Source: Gekko japonicus
Lineage: Eukaryota
Assembly (NCBI RefSeq): GCF_001447785.1
Contig: NW_015176464.1
Span: 1-64,000, forward strand
Direction of reading: 5' to 3'
Length of the DNA: 64,000 bases
Under the pieces are notes generated by a model. It was given only the letters and a program-made list of their open reading frames with translations. It made no database searches and was not told where the DNA came from. Shown here in pieces: positions 1 to 63,906 of the stretch (its first letter is position 1; each line of letters begins with the position of its first letter). A program made the translations under genes and the position numbers.

Positions 1-15
1 GAGCCAGAGAGTTCT

Positions 16-88
16 GGTGGCTCGCCGTGTTAAGGCACCACCTATAGAAATCATGAGGTTAATTTGATAGCGGTTCGAATCCCATGTA
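16..88 (+). other. tRNA-like Pol III element (tRNA pseudogene or tRNA-derived SINE head)
   Basis: A-box-like TGGCTCGCCGTGTTAAGG (18-35), B-box GGTTCGAATCC (72-82), followed directly by T-runs (90-100) resembling a Pol III terminator; acceptor stem does not pair cleanly. Confidence 0.4.
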
Positions 89-143
89 GTTTTTCTTTTT
101 GGGTAATGGTTCTATTTTTCTTTTTTTGGGCTTGTTTTATTTT

Positions 144-156
144 TCTATTTTTGTAC
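144..156 (-). terminator. snRNA 3' box-like element (GTACAAAAATAGA)
   Basis: Resembles the GTTTN1-4AANARNAGA consensus (imperfect 5' half); lies 9 nt after the terminal stem-loop. Confidence 0.55.
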
Positions 157-165
157 AATAAAGAT

Positions 166-509
166 AGGGTTTAAGAACCCTGAGGTAGCAGCATGGAACG
201 ATCGAACCGAGAGTACAAGACACACCCACTGCCTTGCCTTGTAAAAAGCAGCTTTCATCAGTGCATCCCTATATGTAGATTTATTTAAGCTACCGGGATG
301 CGTGATGAGCCAGCATGCATAAGGCGCCGTGTGAGGGCAAGCCTTTACAGCAAATACTTTGGTGCATCCTTGTAAGCGGGATGCAATGTGAAGGCAGTGA
401 GGGGTTCGATGGACAGTTCCATCTAGACTAGGTGTGCTAGCCTTCCTTTAGACTCTAAAGGAAGAATACCATAGTCTGGCCCACTCAGAGACCCGAAGGC
501 CTCAAGTTT
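166..509 (-). ncRNA. Putative orphan Pol II snRNA-type structured RNA (~344 nt)
   Basis: Minus-strand start TTC|AAACUUGAGG 63 nt after the PSE; 5' cUUCGg hairpin; many nested stems; terminal hairpin 166-181 then a 3' box-like motif 9 nt downstream. Confidence 0.65.
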
Positions 510-553
510 GAAACCTCAGCCACCCGATCTAGTCTTCCTTATTTTTCCTTTTG

Positions 554-572
554 ATTTCTATGTAAAGGTGAC
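554..572 (-). promoter_or_regulatory. Proximal sequence element (PSE) GTCACCTTTACATAGAAAT
   Basis: Close to the vertebrate SNAPc-binding PSE consensus; no TATA downstream (Pol II type); -63 from a C|A start. Confidence 0.65.
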
Positions 573-697
573 CGTTTTTCACCATGTTTTAACTCTAGGA
601 ATTAGTTTGATTAAACATATAACGACCTTTAAGTAGATTAGGTATGACAACGGATTGATATAAATGTTTATTTTTTTTGTTGATTTAAAACATTCAA

Positions 698-730
698 GTG
701 CCCAGCATGCTTTGAGAAATCTATTTGCAT
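698..730. promoter_or_regulatory. Distal sequence element 1: SPH/ZNF143 site (698-716) plus octamer ATTTGCAT (723-730)
   Basis: GTGCCCAGCATGCTTTGAG next to a perfect octamer, -189 to -221 from the inferred start at 509. Confidence 0.65.
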
Positions 731-883
731 ATATGCCAGCCCCCAACGTCAAAATTACACTCTTGCCCTATATGGATCGATCATGGACTGATCCATTTCC
801 CCGTAATCAAAGGGGGGAGACGTGGGGTTTTTTTGTTTATTATTTTTGTTTTTTTTTAAATCTATTGTTCACACAGTAAAATC

Positions 884-990
884 GGGGGTCTTATTGATGA
901 AAAACCCCTTGGTTAAAAGAGGTACGATACTTATATCGTTCCCTCCGAGGCTCTATGACCTCAGTTTAAAAATAGCCAAGGCTAATGTGA
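884..990 (-). ncRNA. Possible second snRNA-type small RNA (~105 nt; 5' end uncertain)
   Basis: Terminal hairpin 885-908 (G-U pair only on minus), 3' box-like GTGTGAACAATAGA (861-874) 10 nt downstream, two internal hairpins, second DSE ~200 nt upstream; no convincing minus-strand PSE. Confidence 0.35.
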
Positions 991-1181
991 ACTGCACATC
1001 GAACCCATCACGGCCGTGCACAGAGCATGTCTCGCACCCCGGGTTCGAGCTGCAGATTACATTGGACCTTCATGGACTCTTCCTCAACAGAGAGGGAGTT
1101 CCTATGATGATGCCCTTCCGCATGAAGAGAATCATTCTTCAGAATTGCTTTTGCGCTCATGGGGAACAGATTAGGGTAGAG

Positions 1182-1224
1182 CTCCCATGATGCTTTGGAT
1201 TCAAAGGGGGGTGATTATGCAAAT
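1182..1224. promoter_or_regulatory. Distal sequence element 2: SPH-like site (1182-1199) plus octamer ATGCAAAT (1217-1224)
   Basis: CTCCCATGATGCTTTGGA plus a perfect octamer, same order as DSE1. Confidence 0.55.
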
Positions 1225-1281
1225 AGCCCAGCGAGCTATTCCGGAAACTACCGAAGGAGCTTTCGTCAATTTTCGAGACTA

Positions 1282-1644
1282 ATGCTTGTGTTTTCGTTTA
1301 AGCTCGGAGCTTTCCGACGGACTGCCAGAACGCCGATTGCTCTGAATCGGCCAAGCTCGGGTCTCAGGCCCCGACGACTGTTTCAGTCATCCATATTACG
1401 TTCAAGACGACCCGCGGATGTGGTGGTAGAGATAGAAACCCCCAAGCCGCGTCCGAAAGTGCTTCTTTGCTTCATGTTAATGTTCATATGTTTGAGTATT
1501 TTACTTTTGTGTGGAATAGTTATTCAAATTTTACATTTTGTTGATCTTGGTGCAATTACTCGGGATCGTGTTCTACAATGGATCCTGGTTGTAAATAAAC
1601 GTTTACACAACTATCTTGTTGCTCCTGTGGGAGCTACATCTTGA
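1282..1644 (+). CDS. Hypothetical 120-aa basic single-pass membrane protein (or terminal exon from acceptor at 1302)
   Basis: In-frame ATG at 1282; Arg/Ser/Pro-rich N-terminus, hydrophobic VLLCFMLMFICLSILLLCGIVIQIL; AATAAA ~40 and ~70 nt after the stop; CTAAT...pyrimidines...AG acceptor at 1279-1302. Confidence 0.35.
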   Translation: MLVFSFKLGAFRRTARTPIALNRPSSGLRPRRLFQSSILRSRRPADVVVEIETPKPRPKVLLCFMLMFICLSILLLCGIVIQILHFVDLGAITRDRVLQWILVVNKRLHNYLVAPVGATS

Positions 1645-1870
1645 GCTCCAGTGCCAGTATTCAGTTATAATTTCTACCTCGGTTGAATAAAGTTATCTTT
1701 TGGATTTATTTTTGAAATAAAAGTTTATATTGTATTAAAACAGTATATATATATATATTGAATACATCGTTGGTGAAGAAAATTTTGAAGTCTGAATCAT
1801 CTTTGTATACATATTTTTAATGCACCACAATTTTATTACGGATATATATATATATTTACCTTAAATGTTC

Positions 1871-47080: not shown

Positions 47081-48089
47081 ATAGTCTGTGAGGGCCCCTT
47101 GCCTATGGGATGCCCTCCCCCCTTCAGGCGCACCTGATGCCGACTACCAGGCCAAACACACATCTTTTCACCCAAGCTTTTAATTTGGGGTTTTATCTTA
47201 CCAGCTTTTGAATGGTCTGTTTCTCCTTTATGGATAGTGTTTATTCTGTTTATGTCCAACGGCTTGTTTATAATGTGTCATGACTCTGAAGAGGCAGCAT
47301 AGAAATATCCTAAATAAATAAATAACTTTTGACCTGGCACCCCATGGATCCATGATATGTAGCCAAGGCTGCAGTGCATTAAAAGCTGCCCAATGAACAC
47401 CTGTTTTAGAAAAAAAGACTCAGCTGAAGGCAGCAGTTATTCAGCTCCCCAGTTTCTCACGTCGGGAATATGGGACAACAGATTTACTTAAATGGCTTGG
47501 CTCATCTGTATCTAATAGTAATTAGAAGGCATTTTATAAGTTCTAACACCCAGTGTATAGCATTTCGGTACACAGAAATTAAACCGTTTAGCTCTGACTT
47601 GGCAGTTGTTACAATTGAACAGTATTTGCCAAGAAACACAAGTTGGTGAATCACTGAATTCATTGTTCTCCACTGGAATGTTTGTGAAGGGTAAATACAG
47701 TGTTTAATGCATGTAACAATGGTTTATAATAAGCAGCATACAGTAAGGTGCATGTGGCAACTTTTAAGTCTGACGAATTTTGATTCTAGCACAATCATCA
47801 TACAACCATGTTAACATCCACTTAAATACACTTGGCATAACTCAGGTGTATTGTTGAATTATCTCAGACAGTTAATATTTCTGCACGGTAAAAACAGTCC
47901 TGATTCTTGGTGTGCATGTTTATTCCTCATTATTGGTGGCAAAATATTAAGCAGCAGTACTTTTGAATTTCTGAAGCAAGATACAGCCAGTGACAAATGC
48001 AAACTAGGGTTACAGTTTTTACACTTGCTAACAAAATGCATATCTCCCCCCCCCCCCCCCATCTCATTGGCAGTTTTCTTCTGGAAGCC

Positions 48090-49040
48090 ATGATTTCTGA
48101 AAGTGGTGCGTTTGTGAAGGGTATGATGCTAGGAGGGGTCTTCTGTGTCCTGGTCACTCTTCTTGGACACATTAAGATGGACAGTAGCACTAAATCTCAT
48201 GAGCACCGCCACCTTCAGGCTCCCAAAAAGGAGGATGTTTTAAATCTTTCTGAAGATGAACGCCTGGGTCTTAGCCATAGCATCCGTGTCTACTGCATCA
48301 TCCTTGTCAAACCTAAAGACCTTAGCTACTGGGCAGCTGTGAGAGAGACTTGGAGCAAACACTGTGACAAGGCAGAATTCTACAGTTCTGAAAAGGTCAA
48401 AGTCTTTCACTCCATTGTGCTTGACACAGAGGACATGTGGCTAATGATGAGGAAAGCATATAAATTTGCCTATGAAAATTACAAGGATGACTACAACTGG
48501 TTCTTCCTGGCCCATCCCACCACGTTTGCCGTAATAGAAAACCTCAAATATTTTCTCCTGAAACAAGACTCATCCCAGCCATTTTACACCGGCCGTACAG
48601 AGACATCTGGAGACCTGCAGTATGTGAATGGTGATGGAGGAGTCGTCTTAAGTATTGAATCATTGAGGCGACTTCATAAAGTTTTTGAGGATCCAGACAA
48701 GTGTCCAGAACAGGGGGGCGTGATTTGGAAACTGTCTGCAGATAAACAGTTAGCTGTCTGCTTGAAGTACACTGGGGTGCACGCTGAAAACGCAGAAGAT
48801 TCTGAAAAAAAGGACATCTTCAACACTAAGTCAGTTGGTTCTCTAATTAAAGAGGCAATGTCAAGTCACCCCCAACAGGTGGTAGAAGGGTGTTGTTCAG
48901 ACATGGCCATCACGTTCAGTGGGTTGGCTCCTAACCATATGCACGTGATGATGTACGGAGTCTACAGGCTCCGAGCATATGGACACAGTTTTAATGATGC
49001 CTTGGTTTTCCTACCTCCCCCGGGCTCTGATAATGACTGA
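48090..49040 (+). CDS. C1GALT1C1: C1GALT1-specific chaperone 1 (COSMC), 316 aa, single coding exon
   Basis: [19 protein letters not shown]...[20 protein letters not shown]...[23 protein letters not shown]...[12 protein letters not shown]; synteny with MCTS1 and CUL4B. Confidence 0.97.
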
Positions 49041-60899: not shown

Positions 60900-62182
60900 C
60901 GCTGCATCGGATCACAGCCAAATGATGCCGAGATGCAAAATGAAACCAAGCGAGGAACCAAGGCGTTCCCCTCCCCGTTTCCCTCAACCCATTCCTGGCC
61001 AAGGAAAGAAGGGGAGAACACGCCTCCTAAGCCTGCCCCTGAAATGGGCAGGGAGAAGACAAGGGAGGGAAGCTGCATTCGAGAGATCCCAACCGCTCCT
61101 TTCTTCCAAGCTTTTACTCCCCCCACCCTGGGAAGCCCGCACGGCTCCATCCGATGGGGCTCAAACCCCGCCGGGCCACGGGAAAAAGAAAGGCCACCCG
61201 AAAATCCGCTACAGGGGGCGGGGGGCAACAAGGCTGCTCAGCGCACCCGCCCATCCTTTCTCGGAGAAAAGTGCGGTGGCCCCGCCTCTTTCCATAAGGA
61301 AGCTTCAAGCGCTGGAGCGCGAGGATTTTCCAACGGACCAGCCATCCCATGGCTGGGCGCGCGAGAGGCCAGCAGCAGCCACCCGGCAACATGATCACTT
61401 CCGGTAGGTCAGAGGACAGAGGAAGGCGGGTGGGGTGCTAGGTAGCGAGGGGGGGGGGAGAGAAGGCCGAGGCGGGGGAGGGAAGGGACGCGAGGAAAGG
61501 CCGAGGCGCGAGAGGCAGGGCCGACCACCTTCCTGCCAGAGCCTGGCCAGCCTCTTTCGTCTGGTTGAGCCCCACAGGGGGGAACTTGAAGTCGGTTCCG
61601 AGGCGCCCGGCAATGCTTCCGGGCGGGGCGGCCTCCCGACATGCCTAGCAACCGGATGCACCGCCATCTTTAGCCTCCCTGCCTCTCAGCTCTAGTATTG
61701 ACAATAACAAGCCGCGATCCCAGGCCGGCCTCCCTCTCCCCCCCTCCCTCTCTTGGCAACGAAAGAGGAGGAGGAAGTGGAGGGGAAGTGAGAGAAGGAG
61801 AAGGGAGCTCGACTCCCCTCTCCTTCCTCAGGAGAGAGGTGGCCTCGGGCAGGGGGACGAGAGTGAGAAAGAGGGACCCTGCCCGCTTCTTGGAGCGGAG
61901 AAGGGGGCAGAGCCGAGAAGGAGGCCTGCCAGCATCGGGAACGGGGAGAGGCGTTCGCTCACTCGGGGCAGGCAGAACTCCCTGAGAGAAGAAACCAACC
62001 AGAGGGGGAGGGCAGACAAGAAGCGCTTCTCCTGATCGAGGGGGACCTGCTTGGCAAGGAGGCACAAGCTTTGGATCCCGCCGGCAAGGCAGAGCTCTTC
62101 AGTTACCAACTCGGTCTCTTTCTGCGTGTCTGTCACACCAGCAGGATTTGATGCCCTTCAGCCTGCTCACCTCTGTGTGTTC
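60900..62182 (+). promoter_or_regulatory. CUL4B: CUL4B CpG-island promoter region
   Basis: GC/CpG-rich, GC boxes, YY1 motif CCGCCATCTT at 61661-61670. Confidence 0.75.
61391..61403 (+). CDS. CUL4B: Probable alternative CUL4B first coding micro-exon (MITS-G)
   Basis: GCAACATG ATC ACT TCC G|GTAGGT; joins in frame to acceptor TTTCCCACAG|GT at 62195/62196 giving [12 protein letters not shown]. Confidence 0.55.
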
Positions 62183-62735
62183 ATGTTTCCCACAGGTTTC
62201 TCTTCCCCCAACCCCTCAGCAGCAGCAGCTCAGGAGGTCAGACCTGCCACTGATGGTAGCAGCAGTAGCTCCTCCTCCTCGTCCTCCTCTAAGAAGAGAA
62301 AATTAAATAGTAATAGTAACAGTAGTGAGAGAGAAGAGGTTGACGCCATCTCCTCCTGCTCTTCCCTTCTTTCCAAAGCCAACTCTTCCTCCTCCACATC
62401 CTCCTCTGTCAACACCACTGCTTCTACTGCCTCCTGTTCCTCCTCGGGGGTTGCCTCTTCCAACCATCACCTGCAGAAGAAGTTGCGCTTTGAGGACTCA
62501 TTGGATTTTATTGGACTTGATGTGAAGATGGCTGAAGAGTCTTCCTCTTCATCCCCTGCTGCCTCTTCTCAGCAGCAGCACCAGCAGCAACTCAAAAATA
62601 AAAGCCTTTTAATTTCCTCAGTAGCTGTGGGACACCACGCAAATGGCCTGACCAAAGCTGCCTCCTCCACTGTCTCCAGTTTTGCCAACAGTAAACCTGG
62701 TTCAGCCAAGAAGTTAGTGATCAAGAACTTTAAAG
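62183..62735 (+). CDS. CUL4B: Cullin-4B, large N-terminal coding exon (gene continues beyond the window)
   Basis: [20 protein letters not shown]...KKRKLN (NLS)...[22 protein letters not shown]...[15 protein letters not shown] then G|GTAAC donor. Confidence 0.96.
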
Positions 62736-63705
62736 GTAACAGACAGCTGTTGTTCCTTATGTCTGACATCTCTGTGGGGTTGGGATGGCCGGTATGTTGT
62801 AAAAATCTCTGGGAACATTCAGTACTCTCCTGTAAAGTCCCATGTCAGCACAGGCTAGGCTGCATATTCTCTCCTCACTAGATCCAAGTGAAGCACTTTA
62901 TTTTCCCCACAGGAGTAAATGGGGAATGTGGGGTTAAACCTGCTCCCTCTAACTGCTGAGCCTGTGAGCTTACTTGGGAATGGACATCTGCTTCCCAGAT
63001 TGCAGCCTGTTTTGGACTTTGTTCAAGAGAATTATGTAGGACCATTGACAGCTGAACCAGTCTCCTACTATATAGCTCCACCCCTTCATCTCCATATCTC
63101 TGCCTCTGTTCAGTTTCTTGGTGTGATGCTAGTGTGGGTACACTATAGTGCGATGGAATCTTAAGCCTTTATAAGAGTGGTAGTGTTTGAAACTGGCTCT
63201 TTTTTAAAATAGATATAAATTGCAGCTTGGAAAAACTTATGTATGTGTATTCTTAGAAATTTTTGAGAGATGCAAGTCCCACAGTCAGTCATTTGGAGAA
63301 TCTTATATACAGTTGTGTGCAGCCTTCTGCTGCTCCCTGTGAAAATAAATGTATTTGAGCAGTACTCCAATAACTCTGCCTCCACTTGAAATCACATATG
63401 AGATTTTTTTTTGTTAGGCCAAAGAAGCAGTACTTTGTAGATTGTCTACTTCTTGAATCATATTAGGATAGTGAGACAATATACAATCAGCCCTAGGAAT
63501 ATAATGTGAATTAATGACAATTTGATGGTTCTTTGCCATGGGGTACCTCATCTTGTCTGCTGAGGAAAGATCCTCTTCCTCCCTGACATTCCATGGTAGA
63601 GTCAGTGTGGTGTAGTAAATGTTGAACTAAGCTCTGGATTGACCCATGTTCAAATTCCCATTCTGCCATGAAGCTCACTGTATGACCTTGGACTAGTCAC
63701 TTCCA

Positions 63706-63906
63706 GGGGAGGGGCTGTGGCTCAGTGGGAGAGCCTCTGCTTTGCATACAGAAGGTTCCAGGTTCAGTCCCTGGCATCTCCAGTTAAAAGTATGAGACAG
63801 TAGGTGACGTAAAAAAACTCTACCTGGCAAGATGCTGCCAGTCTGACTAGGCAGTACTGACCTTGATGGACTGATAGTCTGATTCCATATAAGGCAGCTT
63901 CATATG
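63706..63906 (+). mobile_element. tRNA(Ala)-like-headed SINE
   Basis: GGGGCTGTGGCTCAGTGGGAGAGCCTCTGCTTTGCATACAGAAGGTTCCAGGTTCAGTCCCTGGCATCTCCA followed by a non-tRNA body. Confidence 0.7.

Follow-up and report, generated by a model that had tools for sequence, protein, structure and literature searches.

Near the start of a 64,000-nt stretch of the Gekko japonicus genome (contig NW_015176464.1, positions 1 to 64,000; hereafter the window), the segment 166-509 can be folded into a dense, nested structure that includes a cUUCGg tetraloop hairpin. A first-pass annotation, made from the letters alone, had read it as a selected fold of the minus strand, a scaffold or possibly a catalyst. This raises the question of what kind of element carries such a fold, which strand makes it and what it could do there.

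Positions 1-1870 (plus strand) align with many loci of the same genome at 65-91% identity, a DNA search of the genome with this region having returned 44 matches, and the stretch is what follows env in a lokiretrovirus-like provirus present in many copies, a setting absent from the first-pass annotation. In longer stretches around other copies, gag, pol and env precede this part and an LTR follows it. In these copies env ends about 150 nt before the equivalent of window position 1 and an LTR-like repeat (3' LTR) begins downstream of an accessory ORF, so that the RNA feature sits between env and the 3' LTR. In the one natural pol frame compared with Pfam we found protease, RT, tether, second RNase H and integrase; two RNase H domains, tether and RH, within PR-RT-RH-IN are a lokiretrovirus trait. 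The env product carries an RPKR site ahead of a hydrophobic stretch in 2/2 frames; it matched nothing among Pfam and PDB sequences, and its Atlas neighbours are paramyxovirus F clusters (Fusion_gly) at 0.90, a low recognition value that serves as a lead only. The PDB reverse transcriptases nearest to this RT are gamma (4e-74), foamy (3e-59) and Ty3 (1e-55), and the name lokiretrovirus-like is given by features that fit PMC7947760 rather than by an RT tree. As described in the accessible part of that source, lokiretroviruses combine gag-pol-env, a tether plus RNase H and an F-like Env with an RXKR site, of which the present provirus shares gag-pol-env and the tether plus RNase H, its Env having a site of RXKR type and a tentative likeness to F; reptile copies are termed highly degraded there, whereas several copies here keep long open pol or env frames. 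The text of PMC7947760 gave 0 matches for snRNA, noncoding and microRNA, and a 12-nt motif gave 0 matches in the part of its supplement that was covered, where sequences are broken into lines. Outside the host genome no relatives turned up among viral and metagenome contigs: the sequence motif occurred in 0 viral contigs and env in 0/31 candidates among metagenome contigs.

Copies of the segment were aligned, 23 first and then 26 with three distant additions, at a core identity of 66% to 98%; L011, L015, L023/L088 and partial matches (short or with N gaps) were left out. All aligned copies come from one genome, the rows are related, and the pair counts are not independent events. The predicted product of 166-509 (minus strand) is an snRNA-type RNA with its +1 at about A509 (+/-1) and its 3' end at about 166, both ends being predicted from the spacing of the PSE and 3' box compared with host U5 and U2 genes; its predicted length is 344 nt in the window copy and 235-381 nt among the 26 copies. 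Folding of 166-509 gave a z-score of -4.78 on the minus strand and of -4.32 on the plus strand, where the ensemble was sharper, with 0/100 shuffles as good in either case. The z-score is strong for both strands and thus does not by itself choose between them, nor do the per-copy z-scores, which used 12 shuffles only. The energy of the common structure of the alignment was -95.3 on the minus strand versus -88.4 on the plus strand.

The paired segments that the first-pass annotation had listed are all present in the sequence where it had placed them, and compensatory changes are seen among the 26 proviral copies. The 5' hairpin with the cUUCGg loop (488-503, minus strand) is paired in 150/155 cells, pair 502:489 occurring as AU13/GC10 and pair 500:491 as GU21/AU2. 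It is followed at 425-477 (minus strand) by a domain in which a 9-bp helix (477-468/433-425, with U471 bulged) surrounds a 10-bp hairpin (464-455/451-442), and covariation is found in both: the helix is paired in 231/234 cells (468:433 CG11/UA9) and the hairpin in 255/260 cells (458:448 CG9/UA7/UG6; 457:449 CG17/UA6), the cells being counted over 26 copies and the pair types over 23 of them. Within the helix, 476-472/430-426 is nearly invariant, and the U471 bulge is missing from L072 and L107. The alignment further defines a long arm (193-422, minus strand) made of helix 422-417/198-193 (137/153 cells; 418:197 AU13/GC10), helix 410-403/208-201 (203/208 cells, nearly invariant and therefore uninformative by covariation), a core 396-393/233-230 and a local hairpin 227-224/214-211. 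At 166-181 (minus strand), a 3' terminal hairpin (180-176/171-167), which had escaped the first-pass annotation, is paired in 130/130 cells (177:170 UA13/CG10). Two-sided changes back the UUCG hairpin, helix 477-468/433-425, the 10-bp hairpin, helix 422-417/198-193 and the 3' terminal hairpin. Among the helices proposed earlier, the UUCG hairpin, the 10-bp hairpin, the helix enclosing it and two of the long-range pairings, in the form 422-417/198-193 and 410-403/208-201, hold across copies.

The wobbles had been taken to favour the minus strand, apart from a few stems said to fit the plus strand, and the alignment agrees on both counts. Paired cells on the minus and plus strands are 150/128 for the UUCG hairpin, 231/216 for 477-468/433-425, 255/247 for the 10-bp hairpin and 137/115 for 422-417/198-193, but the outer pairs 399-397/227-229 of one stem fit the plus strand better, with 50 (minus) versus 68 (plus) of 76. 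When distinct pair types were counted in nine helices, 22 one-sided changes fitted the minus strand and 12 A·C types would fit the plus strand; rare pair types may reflect decay after insertion. Covariation in the 26 copies, with an snRNA-type promoter and a 3' box on the same strand, supports the earlier view of a real and selected fold on the minus strand.

Between the conserved parts lies a variable domain (236-386, minus strand) of exchangeable hairpin modules closed by GCAUCC/GGAUGC-like stems, with 29% mean column identity and a size of 78-204 nt between copies, counted from 396 to 230. The inner helices first drawn at 256-307, 263-301 and 321-345 turned out to belong to this domain of the window copy and are gapped in at least 12 of 23 copies. 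In L072 the 5' strand of the conserved arm is duplicated inside the variable domain (ACTGTGCATCGAACCC twice). The promoter halves of L004 and L005 are nearly identical to those of L002 and the window copy, respectively, yet their variable modules differ, a patchwork that shows signs of recombination between viral lineages, or of assembly chimeras. No Rfam family, ribozyme families included, fits the 166-509 RNA: at gathering score the window gave only a tRNA, at 63711, while 1-1870 searched at E up to 10 gave 4 sub-threshold matches and five divergent loci gave 1 chance match. A coding role was rejected, no ORF being shared or conserved among copies.

On the minus strand the fold is bracketed by signals that resemble those of the host snRNA genes. 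The octamer ATGCAAAT (distal sequence element, 723-730, minus strand) stands at -221; all copies that cover this region have it (24/24), 22 of them at -221 to -227 and the other two, L012 and L013, at -109, in which about 115 nt are missing between octamer and PSE. Adjoining it at 699-716 (plus strand) is an element that we take to be SPH/ZNF143-like, with 80% mean identity compared with 64% in the spacer. In 5/5 host U5 genes the octamer is located at -231 to -233, and host U5 genes have a similar element next to it. The PSE (GGTCACC..., 553-572, minus strand) has its TCAC at -62, with no TATA at -30; the same motif occurs at -61 in 5/5 host U5 genes, and TCAC at -61 in 2/8 host U2 loci. By pattern the PSE is present at -61 to -63 in 21/26 copies, by eye in three more, and two copies are without sequence or octamer anchor. 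Downstream, the 3' box GTACAAAAATAGA (144-156, minus strand), 9 nt past the terminal hairpin, agrees at 12/13 bases with the corresponding element of host U5 (L090) and U2 (L098) genes and is found by pattern in 24/26 copies. Mean conservation is 0.96 for the octamer, 0.80 for the SPH-like element, 0.79 for the PSE, 0.87 for the 3' box, 0.89 and 0.83 for the RNA cores and 0.64 for the spacer. The arrangement is thus that of a Pol II snRNA-type gene, with a PSE about 50-65 nt upstream without TATA, octamer and SPH about 220 nt upstream and a 3' box 9-19 nt after a terminal stem-loop, and transcription by Pol III is disfavoured by T runs of four or longer (T4-T5) inside 21/26 RNAs. No Sm site is conserved, an Sm-like motif being limited to 2/26 copies and lying there in the variable domain; the usual position of an Sm site, before the 3' stem-loop, is occupied by a match to let-7. 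On these signals, 166-509 is very probably a Pol II snRNA-type gene in its anatomy, oriented antisense to the provirus.

This match belongs to a group of overlapping seed matches at 181-193 (minus strand), also absent from the first-pass annotation, which pair with the mature arms of let-7 (188-181), miR-15/16 (193-186) and miR-103/107 (194-187), as taken from the genome's own Rfam let-7, mir-15/16 and mir-103 loci. Positions 2-8 of let-7 pair in 26/26 copies and positions 1-8 in 25/26; positions 1-8 pair in 24/26 copies for miR-15/16 and in 23/26 for miR-103. The miR-15/16 part is absent from the two most distant copies, and these have A-U at let-7 position 9 where the other 24 have G·U, a change that the let-7 pairing survives. 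From octamer to 3' box, the longest invariant run is 193-182 in the 23-copy cassette and 188-178 in 26 copies. The site columns are conserved in 8/8 cases compared with 34/77 other unpaired core columns (Fisher p 0.002, calculated on rows that are not independent). The site is mostly single-stranded, between the long arm and the 3' hairpin, and the let-7 match is predicted to be more open than the RNA average in 25/26 copies. The exact 21-nt motif has 25 occurrences in the host genome and its reversed control 0. There are about 90 conserved microRNA families; on this count we estimated by hand a chance of about 0.01 for one 8mer in the run and of about 1e-4 for two overlapping ones, the three families having been picked after the match was recognised and not from a full seed catalogue. 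Past position 11, in a fixed register, pairing of the microRNA 3' half is patchy, the bases concerned sitting in helix 422-417/198-193; the extensive 3'-half pairing of a TDMD trigger of HSUR1 type was not found, and microRNA degradation is therefore not indicated. What the copies share is a conserved and perfect seed match, predicted to be accessible, to host microRNAs, as in viral microRNA decoys and adaptors. Four site bases could pair in cis (487-484/181-184), and 487-484 varies while the site run does not. As a separate observation, L072, L106, L107 and L019 have, at an equivalent position at the start of the variable domain, matches to what we take to be the seeds of the miR-17 and miR-18 families, which are within chance. 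Other seed-like 7-8mers, noted by eye with presumed seeds and uncounted, are scattered in variable loops, about 0.5 8mers per RNA being expected by chance.

We therefore favour, at a probability of about 0.58, the reading of this RNA as an HSUR-like microRNA decoy carried by a retrovirus. Pol II with SNAPc would transcribe it independently of the LTR, and Integrator would cut its 3' end, giving an abundant capped, non-polyadenylated RNA. The Sm site is needed for the return of snRNAs to the nucleus by the snRNP route; lacking it, the RNA would stay cytoplasmic rather than re-enter the nucleus in this way, and would meet Argonaute. The tetraloop hairpin and the terminal hairpin would stabilise the molecule, and the exposed site would bind let-7 and miR-15/16/103 by seed only, titrating them. 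These microRNAs (let-7, miR-15/16, miR-103) are growth-restraining and act on cell-cycle targets; their titration would relieve the microRNA brake on cell-cycle genes of the infected cell, and, with the gene in antisense orientation, the genomic RNA would carry neither the 3' box nor the microRNA sites. Against a decoy, with a single site per molecule the RNA would have to be very abundant to be more than a weak sponge, and the site leaves both the conserved 5' domain and the variable modules unexplained. A wider reading, which we consider doubtful, would take in these modules as well: an HSUR-like RNA independently invented in a retroviral lineage, antisense, Sm-less and driven by an snRNA promoter, with one stacked let-7 and miR-15/16/103 site and exchangeable loops serving as guides or binding modules, would form an adaptor diversified by recombination that could act on the host from endogenous copies.

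Other readings assign a different role to the site or to the fold. The site may control the RNA itself, through its stability or as a let-7/miR-16 sensor, with the RNA acting otherwise, e.g. as a decoy for protein or through antisense regulation of the provirus. In its favour, conservation is as high in the 5' domain and long arm as at the site, the RNA is fully complementary to unspliced viral RNA, and, according to the accessible part of PMC12282143, pestivirus RNA owes stability to let-7 and miR-17 sites that do not sequester let-7. Three growth-suppressive families stacked in 14 nt would nevertheless suit titration better, and we judge control of the RNA by its own site unlikely. We find it quite unlikely that the RNA works as an adaptor like HSUR2, holding let-7 or miR-16 at its 3' site while exchangeable loops recognise RNAs of the host or the virus by pairing and bring the microRNAs to these targets; the pairing is seed-only, as in HSUR2, which is described as binding miR-16 without altering its level (PMC6763288, as far as accessible), and the loops vary as modules on a fixed scaffold, as guides might, but such shuffling is also expected from template switching at repeated stems with no selection on the loops. 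It could also be supposed that the conserved run serves to bind a protein or to build the structure and matches the seeds by chance, given that it sits where snRNAs carry their protein-ring site, that partial cis pairing is possible and that the match was recognised only afterwards. The run stays constant where its cis partner varies, two 8mers overlap and let-7 position 9 changes from G·U to A-U, all of which make coincidence very unlikely.

Two further alternatives concern the fold as a whole. A role of the plus strand, either as an export or packaging element of RRE/CTE type acting in cis on the viral RNA or as a let-7-like viral microRNA from 181, would agree with the location after env, with a plus strand that folds as well (z -4.32, sharper ensemble), with the one stem whose outer pairs fit it (68 versus 50 of 76) and with the identity of plus 181-188 to the let-7 5' end. 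It is highly improbable in view of the alignment energies (-95.3 versus -88.4), of the wobbles of four helices and the UUCG loop, which fit the minus strand, and of a promoter and 3' box that bracket the fold exactly on that strand; plus 181-202 also forms no local pre-miRNA hairpin. The first-pass annotation had in addition proposed an 8-bp pseudoknot between 430-437 and 220-227. Its 6-bp core is intact in 17/23 closer copies, and over the 26 copies 177/208 cells are paired, the three most distant copies keeping the 5' strand without the 3' strand. We rejected it, in this and in a shifted register, both strands being engaged locally: 430-433 by the helix with 472 and 470-468, and 227-224 by the competing hairpin with 211-214 (226:212 GC8/AU6/GU4/AC5); a 4-bp remnant may persist. 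Also rejected was the likeness of GACUA/UAGUC to what we took for a group I intron P7, for which there is no upstream P3 partner and no Rfam match. A ribozyme with a long-range pseudoknot, although suggested by the dense fold, the 17/23 cores and the nearly invariant helix 476-472/430-426, is thus scarcely tenable: the pseudoknot strands lie in better-supported local helices and are not conserved together, Rfam offers no self-cleaving ribozyme or group I intron core, and host signals account for the RNA ends. With the middle third exchanged freely and the best conserved unpaired run matching microRNA seeds, catalysis is not indicated, and only the scaffold half of the earlier proposal fits.

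The closest functional parallel for the decoy is provided by the HSURs, for which the accessible parts of PMC4378190 and PMC6763288 describe an snRNA promoter and 3' box, binding of miR-16, miR-27 and miR-142-3p and, in HSUR2, a perfect seed match to miR-16. HSUR1 and HSUR2 of Herpesvirus saimiri are likewise virus-encoded small RNAs with these signals and a microRNA seed match, but they are Sm-class RNAs of a DNA virus, whereas the RNA described here has no conserved Sm site, is heavily paired and built of modules, is encoded antisense within a retrovirus and has let-7 as its first match. In Rfam we found no relation to the HSUR or U RNA families, by sequence or by structure, at gathering score or with a convincing E-value. 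Lacking both Sm site and homology, the RNA would resemble the HSURs in its working but is not, by its sequence, a member. Small RNA genes inside proviruses are also known from the Pol III pre-microRNA genes of BLV and of simian and bovine foamy viruses and from the ALV-J XSR microRNA, which are read independently of the LTR (PMC5807749, PMC4378190, accessible parts). The RNA at 166-509 differs from the Pol III kind by its upstream Pol II snRNA signals, its internal T runs, its 235-381 nt and a target-like rather than precursor-like character. HTLV-1 HBZ and HIV-1 ASP RNA start in the 3' LTR. They too are antisense to the provirus (PMC5807749, as far as accessible), but they are long, whereas the present RNA is served by an snRNA-type promoter inside the provirus and by a 3' box of its own. 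Viral microRNA sinks in longer RNAs (MCMV m169, HCMV miRDE, the let-7/miR-17 sites of pestiviruses, and miR-15/16 binding by HBV and SARS-CoV-2) also have let-7 or miR-15/16 bound by a viral RNA, according to the accessible part of a 2025 review of microRNA sequestering (PMC12282143), which lists no retroviral RNA of the present kind; their sites lie within mRNAs or genomes, whereas here a dedicated gene would display the site. We found no report of a retroviral snRNA-type gene among the titles and abstract openings covered in the open-access literature, and subscription papers, repeat databases or supplements may hold one.

The literature covered describes, for Herpesvirus saimiri, RNAs that are made from an snRNA promoter and bind microRNAs of the host; for retroviruses it describes microRNA precursors, from Pol III or of canonical type, and antisense RNAs driven by the LTR. 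If our reading is true, a U-type gene directed against let-7 and miR-15/16 in a retrovirus would be a second, independent origin of the strategy and would add a new family of structured RNAs, of which nature supplies 26 variants. It would also offer a natural experiment on the fate of an snRNA-pathway transcript without an Sm site and a compact, testable model for sponges that hold microRNAs stably, and the let-7 activity of the host could be influenced by endogenous copies.

Reads were drawn from three raw RNA runs plus one contig set (4 of 14 listed runs), whose library selection is not known. Depth was low, with 170, 5 and 78 reads in the three runs, mostly 88-95% alike and hence from other copies. 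Coverage was highest at 121-240, crossing the predicted 3' end into the A-rich minus-strand flank; no pile-up of read starts or ends was seen in these low-depth runs, and one contig, which may be DNA, spans 168-559. In run X3 the mate bias was opposite at 138 (14 + / 4 -) and at 910 (4 + / 18 -), with a Fisher p of 0.0003, or 0.02 if halved for mates, while X1, the deepest run, showed no mate bias. The X3 bias over the 3' part of the RNA and the accessory ORF is as expected for minus and plus transcripts, and is a hint only.

Several other elements were noted around the gene. A convergent Pol III-like unit lies at 4-94 (plus strand), with an A box at 16-23, a B box at 72-82, a T run from 90 and no Rfam match; the spacing between A and B boxes is 54-57 nt in 12/15 copies scanned, the boxes being conserved and the interior variable. 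It resembles the retroviral Pol III genes and could be a VA-like or pre-microRNA-like RNA. The accessory ORF (1282-1644, plus strand, open from 1180) is open in 11/15 copies scanned and combines an SP/RxLF-like conserved stretch (RRTARTPIALNRPS..RP[KR]RLF), whose RxL-like part we presume to be cyclin-binding, with a hydrophobic segment; searches of Pfam and Atlas gave no usable match. Before it, at 885-910 (plus strand), a conserved GGGG..ATTGATG..CCCC hairpin followed by TTAAAAGAGGTAC is present in nearly all copies and is a possible splice or regulatory element. A 97-codon ORF at 897-1190 (plus strand) is open in the window copy, whereas the other copies scanned showed no open frame of at least 70 codons containing these motifs; the region also has a hairpin at about 999-1049 and RNA-seq reads at 841-1020, and could represent an exon or else be conserved as RNA. 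Farther along the window, there is an intact single-exon frame of 348 codons at 47994-49040 (minus strand), which we take to resemble C1GALT1C1/Cosmc, the start of a presumably cullin-4B-like coding exon at 62036-62881 (plus strand) and, at 63711-63782 (plus strand), a tRNA-like sequence (Rfam 50.6 bits) that is probably the head of a SINE.
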